Below are positions 142-61,755 of a stretch of DNA of 64,000 nucleotides, piece after piece. This DNA is from Clostridia bacterium. Lineage in GTDB: Bacteria > Bacillota > Clostridia > Oscillospirales > RGIG8002. The stretch is from positions 79,281-143,280 of the forward strand of contig JAFRVI010000004.1 in NCBI GenBank assembly GCA_017438525.1, read 5' to 3'. Each line of letters opens with the position of its first letter. The first letter of the stretch is position 1. The notes beneath the pieces were generated by a model. That model was given only the letters and a program-made list of their open reading frames with translations, was not told the origin of the DNA and searched no databases. Made by a program: the position numbers and the translations under genes.

Positions 142-1620
142 ATGATTAACACTAATATTTACGCCGATATTGCAAAGCGCACCTCGGGAGACGTTTACGT
201 AGGCGTCGTCGGACCGGTGAGAACGGGCAAATCCACTTTTATCAAAAAGTTTATGGAAAAGCTTGTCATCCCGAATATACCGGACGGCGTGAAAGCCGAA
301 AGGGCAACGGATGAACTTCCCCAAAGCTCCGCCGGCAGAACGATAATGACTACCGAGCCGAAATTCATACCGAACGAGGCGGTCGAGGTCGCGTTTGCCG
401 GCAATACGAGCGCAAGGGTAAGAATGGTCGACTGCGTGGGATTCGTTGTTCCGGGCGCCCTCGGCTACACTGAGGGCGATGCGCCGCGCATGGTCACGAC
501 CCCGTGGTTTGAGGAACAGATCCCGTTTGAACAGGCGGCTGAAATCGGAACAAAGAAGGTCATCAGCGATCACTCGACAATCGGTATCATGGTCACAACG
601 GACGGCACGATAGGGGAGTTGTCATACGACGACTACAGAGACGCGGAAGAACGCGTCGCGGCTGAATTGAAAGCGCTCGACAAGCCGTTCGTAATACTGC
701 TCAATTCGGCGTTTCCGAACGACCCCGATACGATCGCGCTTCGCAAGCAGCTTGAGGATAAATACGAAGTGCCGGTGCTTCTGATGAACGTCATCGAGCT
801 TCAGGAAGAGCAGATAAGAGATATAATAGAAAAGGTGCTTCTCGAGTTTCCCGTTAAAGAGATCGGCATATCTCTTCCGCGATGGGTTAATTCCTTACCT
901 GCGGATCATTGGCTTCGCGCCTCCGTGTATACGGATATAAAAGCGAATATGCTTTCGCTACGGAAGGTCAGGGAAGTGGCAAACGCCGTTGAAGCGTTAG
1001 CGAAAAACGAATATATTTCTCACGCCTCGGTCGTTTCAATAGACCTCGGCAGCGGCTCCGGTACCGTCGATCTCAAGATAGAGGATCGGCTCCTTTACAG
1101 AGTAATCAGCGAAAGCAGCGGAACGGAGATCGCCGACGAATCCGATCTCATCGAACTCGTTATGGAAACCTCGCGGCTGAAAAAAGAATACAGCAAATTC
1201 GAAAGCGCTCTGCGAGAAGTGGAATCGACCGGCTACGGTATCGTTAATCCGACAATTTCGGATATGCAGCTTGAACCGCCGGAAATCGTGAAGCAGGGTG
1301 GGAAATACGGCATCAGACTGAAGGCGTCCGCACCTTCGATACATATGATGAAAGCGAACGTCCGCACCGAAGTCGCTCCGATAGTCGGCTCTGAAAAACA
1401 GTCCGAAGAGCTTGTCAACTACCTTCTCTCCGAATACGAATCCGATCCCGAGAAAATCTGGGATTCGGATATTTTCGGCAAGTCGCTTCATGAGCTGGTG
1501 AATGAAGGCCTCAACAACAAGATATACCGCATGCCCTCGGACGCGCGTTTTAAGATCCAGGAAACTCTGCAGCGCGTAATAAACGACGGCTGCAACGGTC
1601 TGGTCTGCATAATTCTCTGA
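142..1620 (+). CDS. spoIVA: Stage IV sporulation protein A (spore-coat morphogenetic ATPase)
   Basis: Collinear over its full length with the SpoIVA I remember from Bacillus. Shared segments: DIAKRT.GDVY.GVVGPVRTGKSTFIKKFME (Walker A), TTEPKFIPNEA, VDCVG, DIFGKSLHELVNEG and the C-terminal GLVCIIL. ATG 142 sits 8 nt after an AAAGGAG RBS. The ORF-track start at 124 is an upstream GTG overlapping the preceding stop. Confidence 0.95.
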   Translation: MINTNIYADIAKRTSGDVYVGVVGPVRTGKSTFIKKFMEKLVIPNIPDGVKAERATDELPQSSAGRTIMTTEPKFIPNEAVEVAFAGNTSARVRMVDCVGFVVPGALGYTEGDAPRMVTTPWFEEQIPFEQAAEIGTKKVISDHSTIGIMVTTDGTIGELSYDDYRDAEERVAAELKALDKPFVILLNSAFPNDPDTIALRKQLEDKYEVPVLLMNVIELQEEQIRDIIEKVLLEFPVKEIGISLPRWVNSLPADHWLRASVYTDIKANMLSLRKVREVANAVEALAKNEYISHASVVSIDLGSGSGTVDLKIEDRLLYRVISESSGTEIADESDLIELVMETSRLKKEYSKFESALREVESTGYGIVNPTISDMQLEPPEIVKQGGKYGIRLKASAPSIHMMKANVRTEVAPIVGSEKQSEELVNYLLSEYESDPEKIWDSDIFGKSLHELVNEGLNNKIYRMPSDARFKIQETLQRVINDGCNGLVCIIL

Positions 1621-1634
1621 ATAATGCACCAAAA

Positions 1635-1668
1635 GGCGCGGAACAAAGCGTTCCGCGCCTTTAATATT
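1635..1668 (+). terminator. Rho-independent terminator after spoIVA
   Basis: Perfect 10-bp GC-rich stem GGCGCGGAAC (1635-1644) / GTTCCGCGCC (1650-1659) with a 5-nt loop, followed by TTTAATATT. Confidence 0.7.
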
Positions 1669-1695
1669 GACAAATTTATCTAATGATATTATAAT
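1667..1695 (+). promoter_or_regulatory. SigmaA-type promoter for the ABC exporter operon
   Basis: TTGACA (1667-1672), a 17-nt spacer, then TATAAT (1690-1695). Both hexamers match consensus perfectly, directly downstream of the spoIVA terminator. Confidence 0.6.
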
Positions 1696-1712: not shown

Positions 1713-3536
1713 GTGACCCCGAGTGAAATGAAAAACAGAAATCTTAAAAACAAAAGCGTGCTCAGCCGTTTCATGAAAGGCGCGGCTGGCTTTTTTGCGC
1801 TTACAATAATCGCTTCTGTTATGGTCACTGTGCTTGACGCCATATTCCCTCAGGTGATAAGATACACCGTGGACACGCTTATCGGCGACGGACAGCCCAC
1901 CGCGATAACAGGATACTTCGCCTCGCTTTTAGGCGGACGCGAATATCTGCGTATGAACCTCTGGGTAATTGCGCTGGTTATCCTCGCAACAGCGCTTCTG
2001 ACGGCTTTTTTCCGTTATCTGACACGCGTCGCGACCGCCCGCGGATCCGAAACGCTGGCAGAGAATATGCGAAACACGCTGTTCATGCATATTCAGAAGT
2101 TGCCTTTCACATGGCATAACAAGAATCAAACCGGCGATATTATCCAGCGCTGCACGTCGGACGTCGACACATTCCGGAACTTCATTTCGGAACAGCTCGT
2201 CAATATGTTCCGTATCGTGTTCCTTATCATATTCTCTCTGTTTATGATGTTCTCGATGAACGTAACGCTTGCGCTTATAGCGACGGCGTTCGTACCCGTA
2301 GTTCTGTTTTATACAAACTATTTCCGCCATAGGATACGCAATAAGTTTACCGAAGTCGACGAGCAGGAGGGCGTCCTCTCCGCAATGGCGCAGGAGAATC
2401 TCACCGGCGTTCGTGTCGTTCGCGCGTTCGGCAGGGAAAAGTTCGAAAAAGACAAGTTCAATAAGCAGAACGAGAAGTACACGGGACTGTGGGTACAGCT
2501 CGGCAATATCCTCAGTTGGTTCTGGGGCATAGGCGACCTCATGAGCTGTCTTCAGGTCATGACGATCGTCTGTGTCGGAACGGTGTTTGCGGTAAACGGA
2601 ACGATAACCACCGGCGAGCTGATCGCGTTCATTTCCTACAACGGCATGCTCGTTTGGCCCGTGAGAGGTCTCGGAAGGATAATTTCCGAGATGAGCAAAG
2701 CGCGCGTTTCGATCGGCAGGTTGCGTTATATTCTCGATTCCGAAGAAGAAACCGACCGCCCCGGTGCCACAGAACCCGATATGCACGGGGATATCGTATT
2801 CGACAACGTGTCCTTCGGTTACTTTGAGGACAAGCCGGTCATCAAGAACGTCAGCTTTGAAATAAAGGCGGGAACTACCCTTGGTATACTCGGCGCGACC
2901 GGCTCCGGCAAATCAACGCTTATTCAGCTCCTCGACAGACTTTATCCGCTTCCCGAAGGCAGCGGGCGCATTACGATCGGCGGCGTAGATATCAATGATA
3001 TAAAAGCGTCGTGGCTGCGCAAAAACGTCGGACTCGTTCTTCAGGAGCCGTTCCTTTTCTCACGTTCCATAGGCGAGAACATCGCTTTGACGGACGCCGA
3101 AGCTTCGGAAGAGCGTATAGAACACGCCGCTTCGATAGCGAGCATAGCGGGCGACGTAGGCGAAATGACGCAGCGTTATGATACGATAGTAGGCGAGAGG
3201 GGAGTTACCCTTTCAGGCGGGCAAAAGCAGCGCGTGGCGATCGCCCGCACCATCATGCTCGACACGCCTATCATCGCATTCGACGATTCGCTTTCCGCCG
3301 TCGATACCGAAACCGACAAGAAAATCCGCGAAGCACTGCGCGATAAGACGAACGGTAAAACCGTTATTCTTATTTCGCACCGCATAGTTTCTCTTATGGA
3401 GGCGGATAAGATTCTCGTGCTCGAAAAGGGCGAGGCCGTACAATTCGGCACCCACGCCGAGCTGGTTGCGCAGGACGGCATCTACAAGCGCATATACGAC
3501 GCCCAATCGTCGATAACGGAGGAGGGGAGAGTATGA
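1713..3536 (+). CDS. ABC exporter fused permease/ATPase, chain 1 of a heterodimer (degenerate Walker B glutamate)
   Basis: N-terminal six-helix exporter TMD. NBD has Walker A GATGSGKST, signature LSGGQKQR and Walker B IIAFDDS, with Asp at the catalytic-Glu position (3285-3287). The start is ambiguous: GTG 1713 or ATG 1728. The stop overlaps the next start (ATGA). Confidence 0.88.
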   Translation: MTPSEMKNRNLKNKSVLSRFMKGAAGFFALTIIASVMVTVLDAIFPQVIRYTVDTLIGDGQPTAITGYFASLLGGREYLRMNLWVIALVILATALLTAFFRYLTRVATARGSETLAENMRNTLFMHIQKLPFTWHNKNQTGDIIQRCTSDVDTFRNFISEQLVNMFRIVFLIIFSLFMMFSMNVTLALIATAFVPVVLFYTNYFRHRIRNKFTEVDEQEGVLSAMAQENLTGVRVVRAFGREKFEKDKFNKQNEKYTGLWVQLGNILSWFWGIGDLMSCLQVMTIVCVGTVFAVNGTITTGELIAFISYNGMLVWPVRGLGRIISEMSKARVSIGRLRYILDSEEETDRPGATEPDMHGDIVFDNVSFGYFEDKPVIKNVSFEIKAGTTLGILGATGSGKSTLIQLLDRLYPLPEGSGRITIGGVDINDIKASWLRKNVGLVLQEPFLFSRSIGENIALTDAEASEERIEHAASIASIAGDVGEMTQRYDTIVGERGVTLSGGQKQRVAIARTIMLDTPIIAFDDSLSAVDTETDKKIREALRDKTNGKTVILISHRIVSLMEADKILVLEKGEAVQFGTHAELVAQDGIYKRIYDAQSSITEEGRV

Positions 3537-5374
3537 GCAAGGAGCAATCGACAAGCCCGTACGACGTAAAACTCCCGTTCTTCGGGCTGAAGAAGATTTT
3601 CCCGTACATATTGCGGCATAAACGACTGCTGATCACCGTCGCGGTCGCCATGGGAATTACGTCGTTGGTTGATATCGTGCTTCCGCTGTTCCAGCGCTAC
3701 GCGATAAACAATTACATAGCAAACGGCACGCTGAGCAGGATATGGATATTCATACTTGTATATCTTGCGGTCATACTTCTGCAGACGGCGACGACGGTAA
3801 TAATGCTCCGTAAGGCATGTACCGCCGAAATGCTTATCGGCCGCGACCTGAAGCGCGACGCATTTGACAAGCTTCAGACGCTCCCGTTTTCGTATTTCAA
3901 CCGCAACTCCGTCGGATATCTCCATTCAAGAGTTATGAGCGACACCGCGAGAATTGGTGAAACGCTGTCTTGGCATCTGGTCGACGGCGTATGGGCTGTA
4001 ATTTATATCGTCGGCTCATTTATAGTTATGTTTTCGCTTAACTGGAAACTTTCGCTTATTATCCTGGCCGTCGTGCCGGTAGTTACGCTTATAGCTGCCG
4101 TTTTCCAGCGCAAGCTCGTCTTCGCGAATCGAAAGGTAAGAGAAACCAACTCGCAGATCACCGGCAAATACAACGAGGGAATTACCGGCGCGAAGACCAC
4201 GAAATCGCTTGTTATCGAAGATAAGATGTTCGACGATTTCTCCGAAACGACGCGGGCAATGAACCGTATATCCACAAAAGCTGCGCGTTTCAGAGGGCTT
4301 TTCGTCGCGACTACTACGTTTTTCTGCATGTTCGCGATAGCTGTAGTCATGTGGTACGGCGGCAAGCTTTCTATTGAGCAGCTTATGGAGATCGGCACGC
4401 TTTCAGCGTTCGCTTCCTACGCGATCGGCCTCGTCGACCCGATACAGAATATCGCGCATATCATCGCCACTATGATAAATATGCAGGTCAACATCGAACG
4501 TGTGACGCGCCTTATCGAAACGGAACCGGAAATTGTCGATTCACAGGAAGTCATCGAGAAATACGGCGACGCATTCATGCCGAAGCGCGAGAATTGGGAG
4601 CCGCTGAAAGGCGACATCGAGTTTAAAGACGTTTCCTTCATGTATCCCGACGGCGACGAGTACGTACTCGAGAACTTCAACCTGAAAATCGACGCGGGAA
4701 CGACCGTCGCGATTGTCGGCGAAACGGGCGCGGGAAAAAGCACGATAGTAAACCTCGTATGCCGTTTTTACGAGCCGACGTCCGGACAGGTGCTGATCGA
4801 CGGGCGCGATTACCGCGAGCGTTCGCAGCTTTGGCTTCACAGCAATATCGGTTACGTGCTTCAGACGCCGCATCTGTTTTCGGGCAGCGTGCTGGATAAT
4901 CTTCGCTACGGCGATCCGGATGCCGATATGGAAACGATAAAAGCCGCCGTACGCAGCGTTCAGGCGGAAGAAATAATCGAGCGCATGGACAACGGATACG
5001 ACAGTGACGTCGGAGAGGGGGGAGACCTCCTTTCGACCGGCGAAAAACAGCTGATTTCCTTTGCCAGAGCGATAATCGCCGATCCGCGCATCCTGATACT
5101 CGACGAAGCGACTTCTTCGATCGATACGCTTACGGAACAGAAAATACAAAACGCGCTCGAAAAAGTCCTTGTCGGCAGAACGTCGTTTTTGATCGCTCAC
5201 AGACTTTCCACGATAAGACGGGCGGATATCATTCTCGTCGTAAAAGACGGCAAAATTATCGAAAGAGGCACCCACAAAGAACTGTTTGCGCAAAACGGGT
5301 ATTATCACAATCTTTATGCGCAGCAGTTTGATAAAGAAGCGGCCGAACAGATATTGAGAAACAATCTGAACTGA
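3533..5374 (+). CDS. ABC exporter fused permease/ATPase, chain 2 of a heterodimer (degenerate signature motif)
   Basis: Exporter-type TMD. Walker A is GETGAGKST and Walker B is the canonical ILILDEATS. The signature is degenerate, LSTGEKQL (5030-5044). A GGAGGGGAG RBS precedes the ATG, and the start overlaps the chain 1 stop. Confidence 0.88.
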   Translation: MSKEQSTSPYDVKLPFFGLKKIFPYILRHKRLLITVAVAMGITSLVDIVLPLFQRYAINNYIANGTLSRIWIFILVYLAVILLQTATTVIMLRKACTAEMLIGRDLKRDAFDKLQTLPFSYFNRNSVGYLHSRVMSDTARIGETLSWHLVDGVWAVIYIVGSFIVMFSLNWKLSLIILAVVPVVTLIAAVFQRKLVFANRKVRETNSQITGKYNEGITGAKTTKSLVIEDKMFDDFSETTRAMNRISTKAARFRGLFVATTTFFCMFAIAVVMWYGGKLSIEQLMEIGTLSAFASYAIGLVDPIQNIAHIIATMINMQVNIERVTRLIETEPEIVDSQEVIEKYGDAFMPKRENWEPLKGDIEFKDVSFMYPDGDEYVLENFNLKIDAGTTVAIVGETGAGKSTIVNLVCRFYEPTSGQVLIDGRDYRERSQLWLHSNIGYVLQTPHLFSGSVLDNLRYGDPDADMETIKAAVRSVQAEEIIERMDNGYDSDVGEGGDLLSTGEKQLISFARAIIADPRILILDEATSSIDTLTEQKIQNALEKVLVGRTSFLIAHRLSTIRRADIILVVKDGKIIERGTHKELFAQNGYYHNLYAQQFDKEAAEQILRNNLN

Positions 5375-18124: not shown

Positions 18125-18201
18125 TGGTCGGAGTGACGGGACTTGAACCCACGGCCTCTTGGTCCCGAACCAAGCGCTCTACCAAACTGAGCTACACCCC
18201 G
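18125..18201 (-). tRNA. tRNA-Pro (anticodon CGG), CCA encoded
   Basis: The reverse complement is CGGGGTGTAGCTCAGTTTGGTAGAGCGCTTGGTTCGGGACCAAGAGGCCGTGGGTTCAAGTCCCGTCACTCCGACCA. It folds as a cloverleaf with a 7-bp acceptor, GCTC/GAGC D-stem, CTTGG/CCAAG anticodon stem, TTCGGGA loop (anticodon CGG) and a TTCAAGT T-loop. Confidence 0.93.
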
Positions 18202-25036: not shown

Positions 25037-26107
25037 CTAAAAAGTATCAATGAGTTTCGCGACGTAGCGCATAATGATCAGTACGTCCGAAACGGTAACG
25101 ACGCCGTCAAGATCGACGTCGGCGGCTTTACGCTGATTGGCGGTCGGCTTTTTGATACCGAGCGAATAGCGGAGCGCGAGCAGCGCGTCTTCGATATCGG
25201 TCTCGCCGTCCTTGTTCGGATCGCCGAGCGTATAGGTGGGCTTCACGACAGGGAGCTTGATATCCGCAATAAGCGGCCAGTGATCCGACGCCGCTCTGAT
25301 TGCCTCATCCCTGACCTGCGCGGTATGCAGACAGGTGGCTTCAACGCTGCAGAAGATATGGTCAACGCAGCCGCTGATGGGGTTCGGATCGGCATCAAAC
25401 AGAACGTTGCTGTTAGCGATATTCTGATACGGTACCTCGTCGATCGTGGCATTCATATCGCCGGTTGAAATAAACGGGCACTTGTTTTTACTGAGCCAGC
25501 TCTGCGCCTTTTTGATCAGCTCGCCCGCCTGAATGGTTCTCTGCGGAGTATTGTCGCCGCCGGAACCTTCCCAGCCGGAATTGAGGTGAGTCGAGCTTAC
25601 CGCGAACTTTCTGCCGTCGGTCTTGCTCTCGAACAGAGCTATACACATATGGCGCATCTGTATGGCGTTGGATACCGAATACTTATAAAGCTCGGTCTTG
25701 ACGACGTTGTATTTTGTCTTATCATACAAAAGCAGAGAGCAGTTTTCATCGTCCCCCTCTCTTTCGAGATCAGGATAGATAAATTCATACTTATCGCCGA
25801 GCAGTTCGCGGATACCCTCGTGCCAAAGCTTTGAGCACTCTTGCAGACCGACTACGTCCGGTTTGTAATAATTGACAAAATCGGCGAATAACTGCGGACG
25901 TGTGCCAATATTCCACGGGCTCCAGCTGAAGTCTTCCTTTGCGACGAGCACGTTATACGAAATGATTCGTATATCCGCCCCTTCGGCCAGCTGCTCGGGA
26001 TACGTCCCGACGTAGCCGTCGGCGGAAGCGGAAATCGCCGCAGCCGCGGGAAAAGCGGTCAGCAGCAGCGTCAGCGAAAGCAATACTGCAATGATTCTTC
26101 TTTTCAT
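25037..26107 (-). CDS. Secreted EEP (endonuclease/exonuclease/phosphatase) family enzyme with C-terminal dockerin (EEP copy 1)
   Basis: Signal peptide is present. EEP motifs are IISYNVL, GLQEC, STGDMN and SDHWPL. A two-segment dockerin, DPNKDGETDIEDALLALR ... DVDLDGVVTVSDVLIIMR, lies at 25040-25228. Confidence 0.8.
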   Translation of the reverse strand: MKRRIIAVLLSLTLLLTAFPAAAAISASADGYVGTYPEQLAEGADIRIISYNVLVAKEDFSWSPWNIGTRPQLFADFVNYYKPDVVGLQECSKLWHEGIRELLGDKYEFIYPDLEREGDDENCSLLLYDKTKYNVVKTELYKYSVSNAIQMRHMCIALFESKTDGRKFAVSSTHLNSGWEGSGGDNTPQRTIQAGELIKKAQSWLSKNKCPFISTGDMNATIDEVPYQNIANSNVLFDADPNPISGCVDHIFCSVEATCLHTAQVRDEAIRAASDHWPLIADIKLPVVKPTYTLGDPNKDGETDIEDALLALRYSLGIKKPTANQRKAADVDLDGVVTVSDVLIIMRYVAKLIDTF

Positions 26108-52221: not shown

Positions 52222-55200
52222 TCAATACTCAACTTCGACGTGTTTTTCTCCTCCGTCGAGGCGGATGAAATCGACCTCGACCCCGTCGATAACAATTCGT
52301 TTTACACCCGTGTTCCTTGCAAGAATCACGACTTCGGTCCCTTCCAGCTTCGCTTTCACCTCAAAATCCCGCCACGAGTCCGGAACGCGAGGCGAAATAT
52401 AAAGCTTATCGCCGCGCTTTTTCAACCCGAGCATCTCCTCTATGACAGCGCGGTAATACCACGCAGCCGCGCCGGTGTAGATCGTCCAGCCGCCTCTGCC
52501 TTCACGATGCGGCGCGGTGTAAATATCCGCGGCCAGAAAATACGGTTCGGTCTTATATCGCGGCTCGAACGAATGCGTTATCGGCCCGATCATCTCGAGA
52601 ATGTCCGACCCGTCGTTACGCTTCCCGAGTCTGAACGCCGCCATTGCGAGCCACACGGCCGCATGAGTGTACTGTCCGCCGTTTTCTCTGATTCCTGCGG
52701 GATAACGCTTGATATATCCGACTTCTTTCCTCGTATTGCGGAATGGAGGATCAAAAAGACGGACCATGTTTTCGTCTTTATCGACCAGGCGTTTGATTGC
52801 CGTTTCAACGGCGATCGCGGAACGCTTTTCGTCAAGTCCCGCAAAAACGGCAAAGCTCTGCGGAAGACTGTCTATGCGGCATTCGGCGCAATCTTCGCTT
52901 CCGAGTTTCGCGCCGTCGTCATGATAGCCGCGTATATACCTATCGCTTTCCCAGCAGTTTTCCGACGCGGCCTTCAGAGACGCGCTCCTTTTGCGCAGCG
53001 TTTCGGCGAACGGGGCGTCACCGAATGCGCCGGCTATCGCCGCGAATCTCTCCATTACGACGGCGGCGAACATAGTAAGCCAAACGCTTTCTCCCTTCCC
53101 CTTTACGCCGACCTTGTTCATACCGTCGTTCCAATCCCCGGAGCCGAACAGCAGTAATCCGTGACGCCCGACACGGTATCCTCTCTCAAGCGCGCGTTTA
53201 CAGTGCTCATACAAACTTCCCGCTCCGGACACAACCGGAGAAATATATCTCTCTGACTCGTTGGGCGAAAGATTGTCACCTTTAATAAAGTTTACGATTT
53301 TGCTTAATATTTCAGCGTCATCAGTCACGGAAACGTATTCGGAAACCGCATAAGGAAGCCAGAAAAGATCGTCCGAGCAGCGCGTTCTCACTCCCTTGAA
53401 TCCACCCGCTTCCTTCGGAAGTTTATGCCACCAGTGCAGCACGTCGCCCTCCTCAAACTGCGCGGACGCCGCCTTGAGAATATGCGCTTTCGCAAGCTGC
53501 GGATCGGAGTACAACAGCGCGCAGACATCCTGAAGCTGATCGCGGAAACCGTAAGCGCCGGAGTTTTGCGAAAAGCCCGTTCTGCCGTAGACGCGCGATA
53601 TCTTCGTCTGATAAGGCAAATAGAAGTTTATAAGCCGGTCAAGGTTTTCCGACGGCGTTCGTATCTCGAACGCCGTATCGCCTCCCGACGCTCGCTTTTC
53701 ACTTTCCTGCTTCCGCTCCGCAAAAAGAAGATGCGGATACGCGGCCGCGAGTTTGCCTCCGGCGGCGGAGAGGTAAAACCACACCGTCGCGCCTTCCCCC
53801 GCTTTCAGCCGAAGCGCCGTTACCGCGGCGGCGCACGCGCGTTCCTCAATACCGCTTTTCGTGTCCCAGCGGCCGGAATAGAAGCTGTCTTTGCCGGTCA
53901 CGAAGCATACGTCCGCCGAACACGAAAGGCAAGCGACAGTCCCTTGCCACTCGTCATTATACGGATTCTCCGCAAAGAGCGCGCCGCCGCGCTCGTGAAC
54001 CTTCGCCATACTCTGCGCGCAATCGTTCGGGAACGGCTCCGCGCAGTACGCGAGCTTCAGATCGACCGCATCGGAAGAACGGTTGCGAAGCGTCACGCGA
54101 ATGATCTTCACGGGCAGCTTATCATGAACGGCGACGCGCGTCCGCGCTTCCAGCTTTCCGTTCACGACGCAATACTCGGCGAATCCCTTTCCGAAGCGAG
54201 CCAGACTTCCGCGTATCAGGTCGCGGTATTCTCCGCCGTACTCGGCGATGAGCCGTTCTCCTGTGTTGTCGCTCATATAGTCGTTGCTCCACGGAGTGAT
54301 CTGATTCAGCCGAGAATTGAGATAATACGTGAAACCAAGCGACGAGTCGGACACAAGCGTTCCAAACGACTTGTTGGCAAGCGGAAAGCACCACGGAAGA
54401 GGACTGCTGCTCTTTTGAGGGCACGCGGTAAACGCGTCCTTTTCAAACCATCCGCCCGGGACTGAGCTCTCTATCTTTTCCGTTTCCGTCAGGGGCTCGC
54501 CCGTAATGACGGAAATACCCCTTCCGCGCGGTTCCGGAGCTTCCTCTTCCGTCCCGCAGACCTCACAGTAGACGCTCGCCGCTTTAAGCATCCTCGCCTT
54601 TTCAAATCCGACCTTCTTTTCGTCAATGAGATACACGTTTTTGCAATCCGGCGCAGCGGCCTCTTCAAGAAGCAAACGGAGACCGCCGTCATACGCTCCG
54701 CCCTCACCGTAAATAAAGCAAAGGTCGTATTTCGCGCCCTTGATCGCCGCGGCTTTGTGCGCCTTCAGATGCGTCCGCACGCGGCCGATATCCTCTTCCC
54801 CAGAAACGACGCAGGTAACTATAGGTTCGTCGCCCGAAACCGACATGCTCCATAAATCCTTCCTGCCGAGCGCGTTCAACCTCGCGGCTTCCGCGGCAGC
54901 ACGCGTTTTCGGCATATCGAAAAAGACTCTCGGCAGGATCGTGTTGAGCAGGCGGTTTTCATCCGCGCCGCAGTCAATCGAAGCCGACATGTTTCCTGCC
55001 GCTTCCCAGGAGGATTTCATCATATTATGAATCCCCTCCTTTTTTATAAGGCGGAATCGCGAGAGAGCTTCTTCCCTGCTTCTGCCGGCGCATTGGATGA
55101 ATACGAACGTCTCGTTTTCGCCACCGCGTAAAGCGAACCTCGTCCTGAACGCTGCGCAAGGTATTACCGGCGTGCCGTCGGCGCAGGAAAACTCCGAAGA

Positions 55201-58200
55201 AAACGCCTCACCGAGCGAGAATATCCCGACGCCCTTTTTCAAGACGGCGCTTCTGTCGGTTTCAAAGGCAAACTCACGGTCGCCGGCAAATCCGAACGCC
55301 GCGCACGCCTCCTCCTCGACGTCTCCGCGCCGCCACACAAGCAGACACTTCTCCGCCTCTCGATATTCGCACATGATGAAAAGGTCGGAAAAAGCCGGAT
55401 GCGCCGAATGCCGGCGGTGCTCGCGAAGCACCGGTTCCGCGTATATCATCAGCTCCCCGTCCTTTTTACGCCTGTCGGTATTGCCGACTTTTATCACGCG
55501 GATTTCCGCGGGTATCCTTCCGTGTACGTTTACGCTCATGGCGGCTTCGAGCCCATCGTGAACGGCGGTGAAAACCGCCGAAGCGGACGTGAACTCCGCG
55601 CGGCGCGACACGCCGTCGCGTATCGGATCTGCGGTGATCGCGAACGGCGTATTTCCGCTTTCGCGCAGCACAACGTACACGCCGGACGGAGTCAACCTCA
55701 GGTCGCGCTTTCGAACGGTCATATCTATACCGCCCCACTTCGAAAAACCGCTTCCGCCGTCGGTTATAACGGTGGAAAATTCGCCGTTGGAAAGCAGCAG
55801 CGCGCGCGGACGGGACGGATCGGTCTCCGAACATATCATCCCTTCTTCGGGCCGCTTTTTCAATTTATATTTCGCATCCACGCTCACACCCTTATATAGT
55901 GAAACGCCGTCATATATCGCTTCCTCGAGCAGCTTTTGCGCGGTGCGCATATCGGCGTCGCGCATAAATCGCTTCTGCATAACGTTTCCGAGAAGGCAGT
56001 TCGCCACGGAAACAAGCGACATACCTGTATGATGCGCCATATAACTCTTGACTATCGAGAAGCCGCCGCCCGTTCTCGAAGCAGTGAAGTCGACCGCCTC
56101 ATACAGTCCGAATTCTCCGTTCATCCCCATATTGACGAGCCGCTTAAGGTTCGCTATCGAATCCGCAGGCGAAAACGCAAGCGTGAGAAACGTTGAATAC
56201 GGCGAGATAACGAGTTCTTCGTCAAGCCCGCGTTTCAGGCCAAGCTTCTGCACGCCGAACGCTTTGTACTGGTAATTCTGCCCCATATCGAACGAATAAA
56301 AACCGCTTTCGGAAACTCCCCAGGGCAGCTTCAGCGCGGCGGTGCGCTTTTTCTGGCAGTAAAGCGCGTAACGCAGCGCTTCGTCGGTAAGCGAATCCGA
56401 AACGACCGGCAGCAGCAGATGCGGCATAAAGTATTCGAACATCGTTCCCGTCCAGGATAAAGGACCGACGTATCCGTCCGCGCCGGCGAAAAGTCTGCCG
56501 AGCATTCCCCAGTGGCGTTTATCCGCGACCTTTTTGGCTATCGCGTAATAGCTCGTCATACGCGCTTCGCTCATCAGTATGTCGTACATATTGTTTCCGA
56601 ACGCGCCGTCGGCGGCGTCATAGCCGATATAGAAGAGCTTGCGGCGTTGGTTGTAAAGTTTCGAGATATCCGCCTCGGCCGTCAGCTTTTCGCACAGCGC
56701 GGCGACTCCGCCGAGCTCGGAACATTCCCAGAGGTAGTCTTTCACGCCCTCCTTCAGCGCGGTAAGGCAGCATAACAGATTTCCGCTGTCGACGGTGGAA
56801 ACGTATTCCGGACGCAGCGGTTCGGCGGTCTTGATGTCGTACCAGTTATATAGATTTCCGTGCCATTTCGGGATACTTTTCAGCGTTTCAAGCGTCGCGG
56901 AAGCGCGGCGGCAAAGCTCGATACTGTCAATAAAACCGAGGTCTCTCGCCGCGAGCACACACAGAAGATAGAGCCCTATATTTGTCGGCGAAGTCCGCAT
57001 AGCAACGCGGTACGGCGAATACTGCACGTTATCCGGCGGCAGATAATTCGTCTCTTCGGTCACGTACTTGTCGAAAAAGCGCCACATTGCCGCGGCAAAA
57101 GAATACAACAGCTCCTCGTCTTCCTCGTCGATGTCCCGTCCTTTGCTGATCGCCGGACGGGATATTTCGCAAAAAACCGCCGGCGCGATCATCCAGAGCG
57201 CACCGAGAACGGCGAGCGGCAGCCGTCCGGAAAGCAGCGAAGCGACGCCGAGCACCGCGGTAAAGCGAAAATAGAGATAATAGTCGATTATTCCGTTACG
57301 TTTGCCGGTCTCGGCTTCCGCGGCGGTCAGCCATTCAAGCAGATTTTTGTGGGAAACCGTCATGCGCCAGAGCGACTTGGACAACTCACAGAACGAAACC
57401 GCCGCGAGCTGCGGAAGCATCATAACGTTAAGCGTTATCCTGGCGCAGCCGGCAAGAAACGCGGGTATCCCGCGCGTAATATACCTGCGGAATGCTATCC
57501 GCGGTTTAAACAGTCCGCGCACCGCCGCGACAGCGTCGCCGGCGGAAACCGAAACAAGCGCAAGAGCAAGCAGCGGTATCCTCAGCGGCGCGGATACAAA
57601 AACGCATACTCCGACAGCAATGAAAACCGACAGAGGCGTAATACCGCGCCTTATATTGTCAAACAGCTTGAATCTGTCCGACAGCCCGAACTCATTGCGG
57701 ACCCTCTCTCCGCCTTCGTTCTTACGATGCTTCTTCAAAAAGAACGCGTTCTGGAAATCACCTCTTATCCAGCGTGACTGTCGCGTCAGCCACGATTTAA
57801 CGGTCGTCGGGAACCCGTCCGACAGCTCAGTGCCGGAAACGGTGCACGCCCGCAAAACGCCGCCCTCGATAACGTCGTGACTCAGCACCTTGTTATTCGG
57901 GAATGCTCCGTCGACGACTGCGTAATACGCTTTAACGTCGATCAATCCTTTGCCCGTAAACAATCCGTCGCCGAAAAGATCTCTGTAAAGATCCGCGCCC
58001 GAGCCGCCATAGCTGTGCATCCCGCCCATTCCGGCGAAGACTCGCGAAAACAAACTGCGCGACGACGATTCGATATCAGTAGTCAACCTTGGTACCGCGA
58101 TCCCGAATCCGTTTATCACACGATTGTCAACTACTTCCGCCTTGTTGAGTGGATGCTCCAAAACCGCCGTCAGTTCGGCTGCGGCGTTGATGGAAAGCGA

Positions 58201-59625
58201 AGTGTCCGCATCCAGTGTAAGCAAATAATCGCTTCCGACTACACCTTTCAGGTCTCCGGTCAGCGAAGCGAAATCACATACGCCGGTATTGATATAGCGC
58301 ACGAATTCCGTAATAGCTCCGCGTTTGCGTTCGCGCCCCATATATTTGCCTTCTCCGCCGGAAAAAGTACGCTTTCGCACCGCGGCGAAGAAACCGCCGC
58401 CGAACTCGTTGTTGAGTTTGCGGATTTCATTCTCGAGCACAGAGAGAAGATGTGTATCCTCCGGACGCGTCGCCGTCGCGCTTTCCTTAAAATCCGCGAG
58501 AAGCCCGCATCTGAGCACGCCTCCGGAAAGCCGCACCCGAAGCAGATTCTTCGCAAGCTTTTTAACTTGATCCGCGGACGTAATAAGGCACGATACCGCG
58601 ACCGTCGTTCTGACGTCGCGCGTGATTCTCTCCGGATCGAGCGAGCACACATAGCGGCGTTTTACAAATGACGACGTTACGTTATCCTGCACCGCACACC
58701 AGATAGCCCAAAGCGGAACGGGCAACAGCAGGGTGACGGCCGCGTTTTTCGTCAGTAATGCGAGAATCGTGAGAATAACAAAAGGCGCAGCACAGTATAG
58801 CGCGACATATACTTTCGCGCCGACGCCGCCGCGCTTCGGGATTAGGTACAGCCCGACGTGTTTTTCGCGTTTTCCGCCTGAAGCGGATTCGGCCTTTTTC
58901 AGCGCATTCTCCGCGAATTCCGCCTCGCTTATTCCCTCGCGCCGCGCGCCAAGCGCCACGCAAGCGCGGTAATACTTCTTCGTATCATCGCTCATATCCG
59001 CATATATACCTGCAGGATCGCGTTTCAACAGTGCGTCCGAAACGCTCAACCTTTCTATGCATTCGGACATATCCGCGCCTGACATCACGCGGAGAGTCCC
59101 GACACATCCCGATATCAGCTCCGCGCTGCCGCCGTCCGAAGAAGCAATCGCCGCACATTCCTTCGCGATCGCTTCCGTCACCGCGGCGGAAAGCATATCG
59201 CGAAACACGGAAAGCTCCGCGTTTGAAAGTATATACTTCGTCTGGACGCCCGACAAAAACTCCTCTATCTCGCCGGGTCCGGCCTTCCCCGCGGCGCGAA
59301 GCAGCGAGGCGGCAATGTGATACACAACCGGCAGTCCGTCTATTCCGGTCGGAAGCGGATCGGTGTTTTTCAAACCGGCGGCGGCCGACCTGCCTTCCCT
59401 GTCGATTAGATAATAGTTATCACAAAGCCATTCGCGCGCTGCTCCGTTTTTTGTCGCAGGAAGCGAGCCGAGTAAGGCCTTTCTGTAAGTCGCGCCTATC
59501 AGCTTCAGCCGCGAAAGCGTAAGTCGCCGCAGCGCAGCGGCGTTTGTATTTCGGCACGCGGAACTTGTGATATCCAACCCCGACCCCGCAAGGAACAGTT
59601 TGTTTTCTTTCATTTTATTTGACAT
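52222..59625 (-). CDS. Cyclic beta-1,2-glucan synthase-like giant membrane protein (GT84-type glycosyltransferase + central alpha/alpha-barrel region + C-terminal GH94-type phosphorylase)
   Basis: 2,467 aa. The N-terminal EWLCDNYYLI motif is present. There are six TM helices in a 2+4 arrangement. GT motifs are LTLDADT, LSHDVIEGG and RQSRWIRGD (about 57736-58623). The C-terminal third has GDWNDGMN (53125-53139) and GGWTIYTGAAAWYYRAV, typical of GH94 phosphorylases. Confidence 0.8.
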   Translation of the reverse strand: MSNKMKENKLFLAGSGLDITSSACRNTNAAALRRLTLSRLKLIGATYRKALLGSLPATKNGAAREWLCDNYYLIDREGRSAAAGLKNTDPLPTGIDGLPVVYHIAASLLRAAGKAGPGEIEEFLSGVQTKYILSNAELSVFRDMLSAAVTEAIAKECAAIASSDGGSAELISGCVGTLRVMSGADMSECIERLSVSDALLKRDPAGIYADMSDDTKKYYRACVALGARREGISEAEFAENALKKAESASGGKREKHVGLYLIPKRGGVGAKVYVALYCAAPFVILTILALLTKNAAVTLLLPVPLWAIWCAVQDNVTSSFVKRRYVCSLDPERITRDVRTTVAVSCLITSADQVKKLAKNLLRVRLSGGVLRCGLLADFKESATATRPEDTHLLSVLENEIRKLNNEFGGGFFAAVRKRTFSGGEGKYMGRERKRGAITEFVRYINTGVCDFASLTGDLKGVVGSDYLLTLDADTSLSINAAAELTAVLEHPLNKAEVVDNRVINGFGIAVPRLTTDIESSSRSLFSRVFAGMGGMHSYGGSGADLYRDLFGDGLFTGKGLIDVKAYYAVVDGAFPNNKVLSHDVIEGGVLRACTVSGTELSDGFPTTVKSWLTRQSRWIRGDFQNAFFLKKHRKNEGGERVRNEFGLSDRFKLFDNIRRGITPLSVFIAVGVCVFVSAPLRIPLLALALVSVSAGDAVAAVRGLFKPRIAFRRYITRGIPAFLAGCARITLNVMMLPQLAAVSFCELSKSLWRMTVSHKNLLEWLTAAEAETGKRNGIIDYYLYFRFTAVLGVASLLSGRLPLAVLGALWMIAPAVFCEISRPAISKGRDIDEEDEELLYSFAAAMWRFFDKYVTEETNYLPPDNVQYSPYRVAMRTSPTNIGLYLLCVLAARDLGFIDSIELCRRASATLETLKSIPKWHGNLYNWYDIKTAEPLRPEYVSTVDSGNLLCCLTALKEGVKDYLWECSELGGVAALCEKLTAEADISKLYNQRRKLFYIGYDAADGAFGNNMYDILMSEARMTSYYAIAKKVADKRHWGMLGRLFAGADGYVGPLSWTGTMFEYFMPHLLLPVVSDSLTDEALRYALYCQKKRTAALKLPWGVSESGFYSFDMGQNYQYKAFGVQKLGLKRGLDEELVISPYSTFLTLAFSPADSIANLKRLVNMGMNGEFGLYEAVDFTASRTGGGFSIVKSYMAHHTGMSLVSVANCLLGNVMQKRFMRDADMRTAQKLLEEAIYDGVSLYKGVSVDAKYKLKKRPEEGMICSETDPSRPRALLLSNGEFSTVITDGGSGFSKWGGIDMTVRKRDLRLTPSGVYVVLRESGNTPFAITADPIRDGVSRRAEFTSASAVFTAVHDGLEAAMSVNVHGRIPAEIRVIKVGNTDRRKKDGELMIYAEPVLREHRRHSAHPAFSDLFIMCEYREAEKCLLVWRRGDVEEEACAAFGFAGDREFAFETDRSAVLKKGVGIFSLGEAFSSEFSCADGTPVIPCAAFRTRFALRGGENETFVFIQCAGRSREEALSRFRLIKKEGIHNMMKSSWEAAGNMSASIDCGADENRLLNTILPRVFFDMPKTRAAAEAARLNALGRKDLWSMSVSGDEPIVTCVVSGEEDIGRVRTHLKAHKAAAIKGAKYDLCFIYGEGGAYDGGLRLLLEEAAAPDCKNVYLIDEKKVGFEKARMLKAASVYCEVCGTEEEAPEPRGRGISVITGEPLTETEKIESSVPGGWFEKDAFTACPQKSSSPLPWCFPLANKSFGTLVSDSSLGFTYYLNSRLNQITPWSNDYMSDNTGERLIAEYGGEYRDLIRGSLARFGKGFAEYCVVNGKLEARTRVAVHDKLPVKIIRVTLRNRSSDAVDLKLAYCAEPFPNDCAQSMAKVHERGGALFAENPYNDEWQGTVACLSCSADVCFVTGKDSFYSGRWDTKSGIEERACAAAVTALRLKAGEGATVWFYLSAAGGKLAAAYPHLLFAERKQESEKRASGGDTAFEIRTPSENLDRLINFYLPYQTKISRVYGRTGFSQNSGAYGFRDQLQDVCALLYSDPQLAKAHILKAASAQFEEGDVLHWWHKLPKEAGGFKGVRTRCSDDLFWLPYAVSEYVSVTDDAEILSKIVNFIKGDNLSPNESERYISPVVSGAGSLYEHCKRALERGYRVGRHGLLLFGSGDWNDGMNKVGVKGKGESVWLTMFAAVVMERFAAIAGAFGDAPFAETLRKRSASLKAASENCWESDRYIRGYHDDGAKLGSEDCAECRIDSLPQSFAVFAGLDEKRSAIAVETAIKRLVDKDENMVRLFDPPFRNTRKEVGYIKRYPAGIRENGGQYTHAAVWLAMAAFRLGKRNDGSDILEMIGPITHSFEPRYKTEPYFLAADIYTAPHREGRGGWTIYTGAAAWYYRAVIEEMLGLKKRGDKLYISPRVPDSWRDFEVKAKLEGTEVVILARNTGVKRIVIDGVEVDFIRLDGGEKHVEVEY

Positions 59626-59714
59626 AACACGCTCCGGGATAATTTAGTACGCATTACGCTTATTTTGCTACGTTTTTACGGAATAATACCGACATGTATG
59701 CTAAGATATTTATG

Positions 59715-59743
59715 TTGACATATTACCTCGAAATGTGTATAAT
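59715..59743 (+). promoter_or_regulatory. Consensus sigmaA promoter for the alpha-oxoamine synthase/SDR operon
   Basis: TTGACA (59715-59720), a 17-nt spacer, then TATAAT (59738-59743). Both hexamers are perfect. A GGAGG RBS lies at about 59760 and the ATG at 59772. Confidence 0.62.
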
Positions 59744-59771
59744 TACCGTATAAATATTTGGAGGTCATACT

Positions 59772-60956
59772 ATGCCGTTATTCAAAAAGTGCAGGGATTT
59801 CCATCTTGTAAAAGATATCAAAGCGATGGGGATTTATCCATATTTCCACGAACTTGAATCAAAGCAGGACATCGAGGTAATGATGGAGGGCAAGCGCCGC
59901 ATAATGCTCGGCTCCAATAACTACCTCGGTCTCACCGTTCATCCCGAAGTCATAGAAGCCGGCGTAAAAGCGCTCGAGAAGTACGGCTCCGGCTGCTCCG
60001 GCTCGCGCTTCCTCAACGGCACGCTCGACCTGCACAATCAACTTGAGCACGAACTCGCTGAATTCGTCGGCAAGGAAGAGTGCGTGACATTCTCCACCGG
60101 CTTCCAGTCAAACCTCGGCATTATTTCCGCGATTGCCGGCAAAGGCGACTACATATTCAACGACCGCGAGAATCACGCGAGCATTTACGACGCCTGCAAG
60201 CTCAGCTACGCCGAAACGATCCGCTACAAGCACAACGATATGGCAAGTCTCGAGAAGAAGCTGAGTGAGGTCCCGCTCGAAGCCGGGAAACTCATCGTCA
60301 CCGACGGCGTTTTCAGCATGAGCGGCGACATGTGCAAGCTTCCCGAGATCGTCGCGCTCGCCGAGAAGTATAAGGCGCGCGTCATGGTCGACGACGCCCA
60401 CGGACTCGGAGTCCTCGGCGAAGGCGGACGCGGCACGGCAAGCTATTTCGGACTCACCGACAAGGTCGATATCATAATGGGCACGTTCAGCAAATCGCTG
60501 GCGAGTCTCGGCGGCTATATGGCGGCGAGCAGCGAGGTCTGCGAATTCGTCAGACACAGCTCCCGTCCGTTCATATTCAGCGCCTCCATCCCGCCCGCGT
60601 GCTGCGCGACCGCGATAAAGGCGCTTGAGATTATGAAACGCGAACCCGAACGCGTCGAACGTCTCGGAGATCTCGCGGAATACCTGCGCGACGGGATGAA
60701 GAAGCGCGGTCTCGCTATCCGCGACACCGACAACAAGCGCGTCCCGATCGTCCCCTTTTACACCTACGAACAGGTGCGCACGCTTACCATCGGCAAGATC
60801 CTTTTTGACGAAGGCGTTTACGTCAACCCCGTTCTGCCGCCGGCGACGACTCCTACGGAGTGCCTGCTTCGCACGAGTCTGATGGCGACGCACAACGAGG
60901 AGATAATCGACGAAGCCCTCGATATCATCAAGAGAGTGGTTGAAGAGAATGCCTGA
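59772..60956 (+). CDS. PLP-dependent alpha-oxoamine synthase, serine-palmitoyltransferase-like (BioF/KBL/SPT family)
   Basis: GIYPYFHELES, NNYLGL, GSGCSGSRFLNGT, DDAHG and GTFSKSLASLGGY motifs. The PLP lysine codon is at 60492-60494. Size is 394 aa. Confidence 0.8.
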   Translation: MPLFKKCRDFHLVKDIKAMGIYPYFHELESKQDIEVMMEGKRRIMLGSNNYLGLTVHPEVIEAGVKALEKYGSGCSGSRFLNGTLDLHNQLEHELAEFVGKEECVTFSTGFQSNLGIISAIAGKGDYIFNDRENHASIYDACKLSYAETIRYKHNDMASLEKKLSEVPLEAGKLIVTDGVFSMSGDMCKLPEIVALAEKYKARVMVDDAHGLGVLGEGGRGTASYFGLTDKVDIIMGTFSKSLASLGGYMAASSEVCEFVRHSSRPFIFSASIPPACCATAIKALEIMKREPERVERLGDLAEYLRDGMKKRGLAIRDTDNKRVPIVPFYTYEQVRTLTIGKILFDEGVYVNPVLPPATTPTECLLRTSLMATHNEEIIDEALDIIKRVVEENA

Positions 60957-61755
60957 CGTAAAGGTCGTTGCAATAACCGGCGCTTCAAGCGGGATAGGCC
61001 TTTGCGCCGCGAAGATGTTCGCGGACCGCGGTTACAAGGTCTATTGCCTCAGCCGCACCGCGCCGAAGGATGAACGCATAAAGCATATACCCGCCGACGT
61101 TTCCGACGAAAGCGCCGTCATCGCCGCGTTCGAACGCATAAAGAGCGAAACCGGGCGGCTCGACGTCCTCGTCAACAACGCCGGATTCGGCATTTCCGGA
61201 GCGACCGAGCTGACCGACACCGCCGCGGCGAAGCGGCAGTTTGACGTCAACTTCTTCGGGCAGTTCATCTGTGCGAAGCACGCTGCTCCCATGCTCCGCG
61301 AAACGAAGGGCGCGATTGTCAACGTCAGCTCCGCTGCGGCGATATTCTCAATTCCATATCAGGCGTTCTACTCCGCATCCAAATCCGCGATAAACTCGCT
61401 CACCCTCGCGATGAGAAGCGAGCTGAAGCCCTTCGGCGTCCGCGTCAGCGCCGTCATGCCAGGCGACGTCCGCACCGGCTTCACGGCCGCGAGGATAAAG
61501 GACGACGGCGAGAAGTCGCTCTATTCGGACACGATAAAGGCGTCCGTGGCGGTTATGGAGAAGGACGAGATAAACGGCATGCCGCCGGAAAAAGTCGCGA
61601 AAATCATCGTTAAACTCGCCGAGAAGCGCAGACCGAAGCCACTGACCGTCGCGGGCGGAAAATACAAGCTCTTCGCGGCGCTCAACAAGCTCCTGCCGAC
61701 CGGGCTCGTAAATTCCATAGTCGGCTCGATGTATATCAAAAAAGAAAAGAAATAA
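60949..61755 (+). CDS. Classical short-chain dehydrogenase/reductase (SDR)
   Basis: ITGASSGIG (TGxxxGxG), NNAG, and S...YSASK catalytic motifs. ATG 60949 overlaps the upstream stop by 8 nt. The ORF-track start is the TTG at 60940. Confidence 0.85.
   Translation: MPDVKVVAITGASSGIGLCAAKMFADRGYKVYCLSRTAPKDERIKHIPADVSDESAVIAAFERIKSETGRLDVLVNNAGFGISGATELTDTAAAKRQFDVNFFGQFICAKHAAPMLRETKGAIVNVSSAAAIFSIPYQAFYSASKSAINSLTLAMRSELKPFGVRVSAVMPGDVRTGFTAARIKDDGEKSLYSDTIKASVAVMEKDEINGMPPEKVAKIIVKLAEKRRPKPLTVAGGKYKLFAALNKLLPTGLVNSIVGSMYIKKEKK

Follow-up and report, generated by a model that had tools for sequence, protein, structure and literature searches.

The operon and its expression signals

We analysed a stretch of 64,000 nucleotides (nt) from the assembly GCA_017438525.1 of a Clostridia bacterium (contig JAFRVI010000004.1, positions 79,281 to 143,280), hereafter called the window, and in particular a two-gene operon near its end. 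The first gene, spt, encodes a pyridoxal phosphate (PLP)-dependent alpha-oxoamine synthase (AOS) resembling serine palmitoyltransferase (SPT), and the second a short-chain dehydrogenase (SDR) resembling the 3-keto reductase KdsR. The first-pass annotation of this DNA had described a PLP synthase of 394 amino acids (aa) overlapping an SDR by 8 nt behind a TTGACA-17-TATAAT promoter, and we recovered the genes, the overlap and the promoter with coordinates and motifs as described. The features of the operon are as follows.

59715-59720 (+), -35 box TTGACA of the operon promoter
59738-59743 (+), -10 box TATAAT of the operon promoter
59760-59764 (+), Shine-Dalgarno sequence GGAGG, 7 nt ahead of the ATG, read from the sequence
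59772-60956 (+), SPT-like PLP-dependent AOS, 394 aa, placed by profiles, Protein Data Bank (PDB) structures, active site, tree and the ratio of nonsynonymous to synonymous substitution rates (dN/dS)
60949-60956 (+), 8 nt overlap ATGCCTGA, with the SDR start codon within the end of spt
60949-61755 (+), classical SDR, a KdsR-like 3-keto reductase by best profile and gene linkage, 268 aa
61756-61790 (+), terminator-like hairpin and U-run directly 3' of the SDR stop codon

The promoter matches the consensus at 12/12 positions with a 17 nt spacer, and the exact TTGACA-N17-TATAAT arrangement occurs twice in the window as compared to 0 in 100 shuffles; the second copy, at 1667-1695 (+), precedes a tandem pair of ABC exporter genes (1713-3536 and 3533-5374), 18 nt ahead of the first one. 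In two congeners, represented by the loci L001 and L029, the promoter is also 12/12 with its position unchanged, and many relatives have a near-consensus promoter (11-12/12) ahead of the synthase gene. The inferred leader of the window operon is ~28 nt long. A search for a regulatory leader returned no Rfam family in the window besides one tRNA, and none in eight related loci.

The identical 8 nt overlap of spt and the SDR gene was found in L001, L029 and L083-L090. The hairpin behind the SDR has a folding energy of -19.7 kcal/mol (z = -5.2), and none of 200 shuffles folded as well. Given the promoter, the two overlapping genes and the hairpin, the unit therefore reads as promoter, gene 1, gene 2 and terminator, and judged from promoter and ribosome-binding site (RBS) a strong expression of the pair is plausible.

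Family placement of the synthase

The synthase carries the motifs GIYPYFHELE (residues 20-29), GSGCSGSRFLNGT (72-84) and GTFSKSLASLGGY (237-249), matches PF00155 in Pfam (6.7e-57) and has thousands of homologues with identities up to 95%. The top NCBIfam model was NF047600, the Bacteroidota (CFB)-type SPT, with 551.2 bits, followed by beta-proteobacterial SPT (402), KBL (382), BioF (376.8), ALAS (252) and CqsA (213), hence the SPT-type profile leads every other AOS profile by ~150 bits or more. The best solved structure was the SPT of Sphingobacterium multivorum (SmSPT; PDB 3a2b/8guh) with 430 bits (1e-127). Below it ranked Sphingomonas SPT (~306), KBL (249-278), SulA (238, 7u7h), CapB (229, 28eh), BioF (~195) and the CqsA structures (127). 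Like the Bacteroidota enzymes SmSPT and BT_0870 of Bacteroides, the protein is a soluble homodimer-type AOS of ~395 aa, with 50% identity over the full length, and the hydrophobic core of the N-terminus (F10, V13, Y22, Y24, F25) is kept.

The contacts in the SmSPT-serine complex have been described by Ikushiro et al. (PMC10196870), and we mapped these residues onto our alignment. All PLP and serine contacts of SmSPT (Asn52, Gly80, Ser81, His138, Ser185, Asp210, Ala212, His213, Thr241, Ser243, Lys244, Phe272, Ser273, Ala274) are kept in the window synthase (Asn49, Gly77, Ser78, His135, Ser182, Asp207, Ala209, His210, Thr238, Ser240, Lys241, Phe269, Ser270, Ala271). Among these residues of the fold-type I enzyme are the Schiff-base Lys241, encoded at 60492-60494 and aligned with SmSPT Lys244, and the PLP residues His135 (stacking), Asp207 (at N1) and His210 (at O3'), equivalent to SmSPT His138, Asp210 and His213. 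The acyl-pocket residues Tyr27, Phe28, Phe83 and Leu84 of SmSPT are found as Tyr24, Phe25, Phe80 and Leu81, and Arg367 is also conserved. SmSPT Met271 is replaced by Ile, at a position where the contact is main-chain only. The catalytic, PLP-binding, serine-contact and acyl-pocket residues are thus those of the Bacteroidota SPTs.

The first-pass annotation had left open a capnine-type sulfonolipid product, which would require a cysteate acyltransferase (SulA/CapB) followed by a 3-ketocapnine reductase. Such a system shares the fold and the condense-then-reduce logic, and the ketocapnine reductases are classical SDRs as well (PMC11211663). A single residue, Lys281, sets SulA apart from SPT (PMC9304779), and the window synthase and every other clade member have Ala271 in its place, as in the Bacteroidota SPTs, which also have Ala here. 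The similarity to the SulA and CapB structures is moreover much lower than that to SPT (238 and 229 vs 430 bits). Our gene-context searches covered the 64 kb window and flanks of at most 10 kb, and no cysteate synthase gene was linked there. We consider this option extremely unlikely, and the suggestion of sulfonolipids found no support.

For the phylogeny we built a neighbour-joining tree of 81 sequences with 100 bootstraps, for which the reference SPTs were copied, slightly truncated, from alignments. SulA, CapB, ALAS and CqsA were judged outside the tree by profile and PDB scores, SulA and CapB also by Lys281. The window synthase falls within a 54-member Firmicutes clade (100% bootstrap), which joins a group of SmSPT, Prevotellaceae, Flavobacteriales and Cloacimonadota sequences at 99%. 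The next node joins the alpha-proteobacterial SPTs at 94%, and E. coli KBL and BioF lie outside. The Firmicutes clade is sister to the SmSPT-containing group and not inside it, which separates it from the Bacteroidota enzymes, as does its occurrence in Clostridia and Izemoplasmatales with a spore-forming monoderm host in the present case.

It should be noted that the homologues are publicly annotated as '8-amino-7-oxononanoate synthase' (BioF) or generic aminotransferase, and that the KBL and BioF models score ~170 bits under SPT, yet with E-values near 1e-113. Both would agree with a housekeeping AOS standing beside an unrelated SDR, either KBL of threonine degradation, which acts with a dehydrogenase, or BioF of biotin synthesis. 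However, the protein stays below the cut-offs of both families (382 vs 460 for KBL NF005394, 309 vs 493 for KBL TIGR01822 and 376.8 vs 426.45 for BioF TIGR00858). Its substrate loop reads GSRFLNGT as compared to SVRFICGT in E. coli KBL and GGSGHVSG in E. coli BioF, and position 271 holds Ala instead of Asn (KBL) or Thr (BioF). E. coli KBL and BioF are placed outside the clade with 94-100% support, and neither bio genes nor tdh were present in the window or flanks. In addition, SDR-type threonine dehydrogenases are extended SDRs of ~320 aa and not classical ones. We therefore give a housekeeping role next to no credence. Profile scores, structure ranking, active-site comparison and the bootstrapped tree agree in supporting, at the sequence level, an SPT-type enzyme and not KBL, BioF or a cysteate acyltransferase. 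The first-pass annotation had proposed SPT over KBL or BioF from a few motifs, and the phylogenetic placement that it had called for groups the protein with the SPTs.

The putative reductase, its linkage to the synthase and the carriers of the pair

The SDR shows the motifs TGASSGIG (10-17), NNAG (76-79) and YSASK (141-145), the catalytic tetrad Asn101, Ser128, Tyr141 and Lys145 as read from the sequence, and a match to PF00106 (2.4e-47). An arginine, Arg36, follows beta-2, which by the usual SDR cofactor rules suggests NADPH as cofactor. The best of 228 SDR models was NF049977 with 226.7 bits over the full length, followed by PRK06179 with 196. NF049977 models the 3-ketodihydrosphingosine reductase KdsR and is based on BT_0972 of Bacteroides. 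KdsR was the top model in 6/6 family members tested, i.e. the window and five other sub-clades, at 225-306 bits. The family has the specific motifs IPxQxFYSASK, MPGDxxTGFT and MExDExNGM.

The scan for carriers used one genome per prokaryotic species and returned 206 relatives, 80 of which were kept. The closest carriers are Clostridia metagenome-assembled genomes (MAGs) from goat and buffalo rumen, with 95-98% protein identity; as the DNA identity is just 78-83%, we regard them as congeners and not as the same species. At 61-78% identity we found MAGs labelled Christensenellaceae, Oscillospiraceae, Acutalibacteraceae, Clostridium sp. CAG:138, Peptococcaceae and Izemoplasmatales along with six Paludibacteraceae/Bacteroidales MAGs, and at ~52% Cloacimonadota, Flavobacteriales and others. 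In a public assembly collection two close relatives of the synthase are indexed in 2298 and 954 blocks, respectively, and the assembly names suggest that some of these assemblies come from human-gut cohorts. The statement of the first-pass annotation that such lipids are not typical of Clostridia matches the literature, but the gene pair as such is widespread in uncultured Clostridia and Izemoplasmatales.

Linkage was examined in 58 loci with a synthase 61-98% identical to that of the window. An orthologous SDR adjoins the synthase in 50 of these, and since it is divergently oriented in two of the linked loci (L038 and L053), the linkage survives rearrangement. The SDR adjoins the synthase in 0 of the more distant loci; of ~20 Bacteroidota, Cloacimonadota or Flavobacteriales loci, 0 have an adjacent SDR, in contrast to the operon seen here. 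The pairwise identities of synthase and SDR correlate (r=0.80), thus the two proteins co-evolve. The synthase and SDR of the window differ from those of the two congeners at a synonymous divergence (dS) of 0.6-1.4 and a dN/dS of 0.016-0.025 for the synthase and 0.05-0.10 for the SDR, and both proteins are under strong purifying selection. Given the thousands of AOS homologues and the low dN/dS of both, the two open reading frames (ORFs) are real genes. The top rank of KdsR in all sub-clades tested, the adjacency and the co-evolution support the first-pass view of the SDR as ketoreductase partner of the synthase.

Pairs of an AOS and a reductase are also known from signal and natural-product pathways, and the operon has a strong promoter of its own, so a CqsA-like autoinducer synthase or a secondary-metabolite starter enzyme with a tailoring reductase was considered. 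The low CqsA scores (213 bits for the profile and 127 for the structures) speak against this, no polyketide synthase, nonribosomal peptide synthetase or other tailoring genes were linked in window and flanks, and the very strong purifying selection together with the vertical-looking spread across orders fits core metabolism better. We judge such a role very unlikely.

Besides the SDR, no neighbour of the synthase is conserved across loci. The lineage-specific neighbours of the pair fit lipid chemistry. In the two most widespread relatives, those indexed in 2298 and 954 blocks, the pair has the 8 nt overlap too and is directly followed by a long-chain-fatty-acid--CoA ligase-like gene (no such gene was found in the 64 kb window), PlsC-type acyltransferases adjoin spt in six loci, and in three Christensenellaceae-type loci a PGDH-like dehydrogenase comes after the SDR.

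The predicted pathway and its genomic surroundings

We consider it probable that the operon encodes the first two steps of sphingoid-base synthesis, from serine and a long-chain acyl thioester via 3-ketosphinganine to sphinganine. Gene structure, family placement, conserved residues, linkage and selection are what the data show, whereas we infer the substrates and with them the acyl donor, the product, and the fate and physiological role of the base. By homology, the PLP enzyme would form an external aldimine with L-serine, and a decarboxylative condensation with a long-chain acyl thioester, either acyl carrier protein (ACP)-bound or acyl-CoA, would give 3-ketodihydrosphingosine. The coupled cytoplasmic SDR of the NADPH type, as its best profile and conserved linkage suggest, would then reduce the 3-keto group to yield sphinganine. 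The overlap ATGCCTGA would couple the synthesis of the two proteins, with the consensus sigma-A promoter and the strong RBS driving them. Later steps would lie outside the operon, and the base may remain as it is, or it may be N-acylated to ceramide or given a head group.

The predicted order, with reduction before any N-acylation, is that of eukaryotes and Bacteroides, whereas in Caulobacter acylation precedes a periplasmic reduction (PMC11087976, PMC10865984). The Caulobacter ceramide pathway (Spt, ACP, acyl-ACP synthetase, bCerS and CerR) likewise begins with Spt, but in window and flanks we found neither an ACP nor bCerS nor a periplasmic CerR-type reductase near the pair, and the present reductase, a classical SDR of the cytoplasm, is predicted to act ahead of N-acylation. 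An AMP-binding acyl-activating gene lies near spt in Caulobacter, and some relatives of the window carry one beside the pair. The SDR itself is similar to KdsR BT_0972 of Bacteroides thetaiotaomicron (PMC9278070), a classical SDR of ~267 aa with GxxxGxG, YxxxK and a basic residue after beta-2, which implies the eukaryote-like order of reduction first and acylation later. It differs in being coupled to spt, as BT_0972 is unlinked to BT_0870.

Several observations weigh against this pathway. The synthase scores under the NF047600 equivalog cut-off (551.2 vs 640 bits), as does the whole Firmicutes clade (514-551 bits, members other than the window 514-524), where SmSPT reaches 728, Prevotellaceae 692, Flavobacteriales 637 and Cloacimonadota 620; because of this we regard the clade as a distinct sister clade and not as part of the curated family. 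The SDRs, unlike BT_0972, fall short of the 400-bit KdsR equivalog cut-off (window 226.7), their margin over the generic model PRK06179 is just 20-46 bits, and a PDB search with the SDR returned generic SDRs of at most 100 bits and no KDSR structure. What the reference enzyme BT_0972 does in vivo is also under debate (PMC11087976). Six loci have no adjacent SDR (L014, L018, L030, L031, L040 and L056, the last of which ends inside spt), and in L034 a non-orthologous SDR lies downstream of spt. L014, L018 and L031 are the Acutalibacteraceae members of the clade; with the SDR missing there and swapped in L034, some lineages may have an unlinked or replaced reductase step. The carriers seen are all uncultured MAGs, and we found neither a ceramide synthase nor a CerR, ACP or head-group gene in the window or as a conserved gene of the flanks. 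This includes an N-acyltransferase, none of which was found in the window, and a dedicated ACP, for which a motif scan of small ORFs in the window and related loci was negative. We found no published report of sphingolipids or SPT in Clostridia or Christensenellales, although an earlier mention may exist. In the 1970s sphingolipids were reportedly described from Acholeplasma axanthum.

As serine recognition in SPT is largely water-mediated, the sequence would also be compatible with another small amino acid, which likewise counts against the pathway. An SPT-fold enzyme that took glycine, alanine, threonine or another small amino acid, and/or an acyl chain that is shorter or modified, would together with the reductase yield a non-canonical lipid or signal of the amino-alcohol type, e.g. 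a 1-deoxy base, instead of sphinganine. In line with this, the proteins form a separate clade under the SPT cut-off, the hosts are monoderm and without known sphingolipids, and no ceramide-synthesis genes are linked. Further, the clade-invariant Asn50 and Ser76, next to the site and beside the substrate side chain, replace SmSPT Ser53 and Ala79, of which the latter has been equated with human SPTLC1 Cys133 (PMC10196870). On the other hand, the direct and water-network contacts and the acyl-pocket aromatics are identical to those of SmSPT, and the two positions also vary among proven serine-using SPTs, with Ser or Asn at 50 and Ala, Asn or Thr at 76 (the Sphingomonas SPTs have Asn at 50 and Asn or Thr at 76). 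The PGDH-like gene after the pair in some relatives also speaks against this alternative. Taken together we find a different substrate unlikely, and sphinganine remains the product that we favour.

The enzymes themselves are of known kinds. New are the separate clade in monoderm Firmicutes and wall-less Izemoplasmatales, the linkage in an spt-kdsR operon and the breadth in gut and rumen metagenomes. On the wider proposal, that a large radiation of Clostridia from gut and rumen, nearly all of them uncultured and going by the labels Christensenellaceae, Oscillospiraceae and Acutalibacteraceae, and wall-less Izemoplasmatales make sphingoid bases or sphingolipids de novo by means of this dedicated operon, we see the case as evenly balanced. 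Gut bacterial sphingolipids are treated as a trait of Bacteroidota, and research is directed at how they modulate the immunity and the ceramide pools of the host. If the proposal is true, Bacteroidota would not be the sole commensal source of sphingolipids in animal guts, and metagenome estimates of 'sphingolipid-producing capacity' from annotated SPT genes would miss these Firmicutes, since their public annotation is generic aminotransferase or BioF. The operon would also be independent genomic evidence for a reduce-first pathway (SPT, then KDSR) in bacteria, and would offer a genomic argument in the debate on whether 3-ketosphinganine is reduced before or after N-acylation (PMC11087976). It would further raise the question of what role sphingolipids have without an outer membrane and, in Izemoplasmatales, without a cell wall.

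In relatives of the window some further observations were made. The six Paludibacteraceae/Bacteroidales loci that carry the Firmicutes-type pair, all from rumen (L032, L041, L043, L045, L047 and L050), branch within the Clostridia clade (subclade 100%, 91% with a Clostridiales MAG), and their contigs are nearly without Shine-Dalgarno motifs (0-1 of 6-13 ORFs), as in real Bacteroidota, a phylum already known for sphingolipids. The pair in these MAGs thus looks like a transfer from Firmicutes. A PlsC-type acyltransferase and a HAD hydrolase lie just upstream of spt in five of the six (not in L032), and this acyltransferase is a candidate N-acyltransferase. Another possible acyltransferase partner is a 444 aa HxxxDG protein encoded ~1 to 4 kb from spt in the Clostridia loci L016, L025, L026 and L055 (e.g. 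L016:3130-4467, -), which gave a weak match to alcohol acetyltransferase (PF07247) and no NCBIfam match.

The widespread relatives have a longer spt leader of 80-120 nt (L002:7890-8003, L087:9890-10003 and L003:3680-3766). These leaders gave no Rfam match. Immediately ahead of the RBS they form a GC-rich hairpin (-26 to -31 kcal/mol, z = -1.5 to -2.4) with a U-run behind it, which may be an attenuator. This attenuator-like hairpin is absent from the window.

In the window the operon is flanked by a divergent gene of the glycoside hydrolase family 94 (GH94) type and a GH78 rhamnosidase gene. Its GC content equals that of the flanks, hence there has been no recent insertion. Pfam annotation of the window showed SpoIVA and dockerin-bearing proteins, on account of which we take the host to be a spore-forming, fibre-degrading Clostridium. 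Two further features are listed here.

52222-59625 (-), GH94 protein of 2467 aa with a glucoamylase-like domain and GH94 supersandwich and catalytic domains, divergent from the spt operon
18128-18201 (-), tRNA gene, the sole Rfam match in the window

The GH94 protein, which we take to resemble cyclic beta-1,2-glucan synthase, is encoded in synteny in the two congeners and is only 69-71% identical there, as compared to 95-98% for the SPT. In blastn the homology to the congener contigs starts at 59715, in the -35 box, for L001 and at 59706, 9 nt before it, for L029, and continues across the operon into the GH78 gene; the intergenic DNA upstream of the operon promoter is too diverged for blastn against either locus.

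Two Exo_endo_phos proteins of the window, one of them with a dockerin (25037-26107), were considered as sphingomyelinases and rejected, as they showed no affinity to sphingomyelinases and gave only weak PDB matches to TDP2 and nocturnin, besides dockerin modules. They lie together with a DUF4886 protein near five giant ORFs in a row (1315-1598 aa, window 26145-51252, -). The two giant ORFs that were scanned contain CBM4_9 repeats, GH16, BspA-type leucine-rich repeats, a WD40-like propeller, a ricin lectin domain and Big_3, and the region looks like a cellulosome-style surface arsenal.

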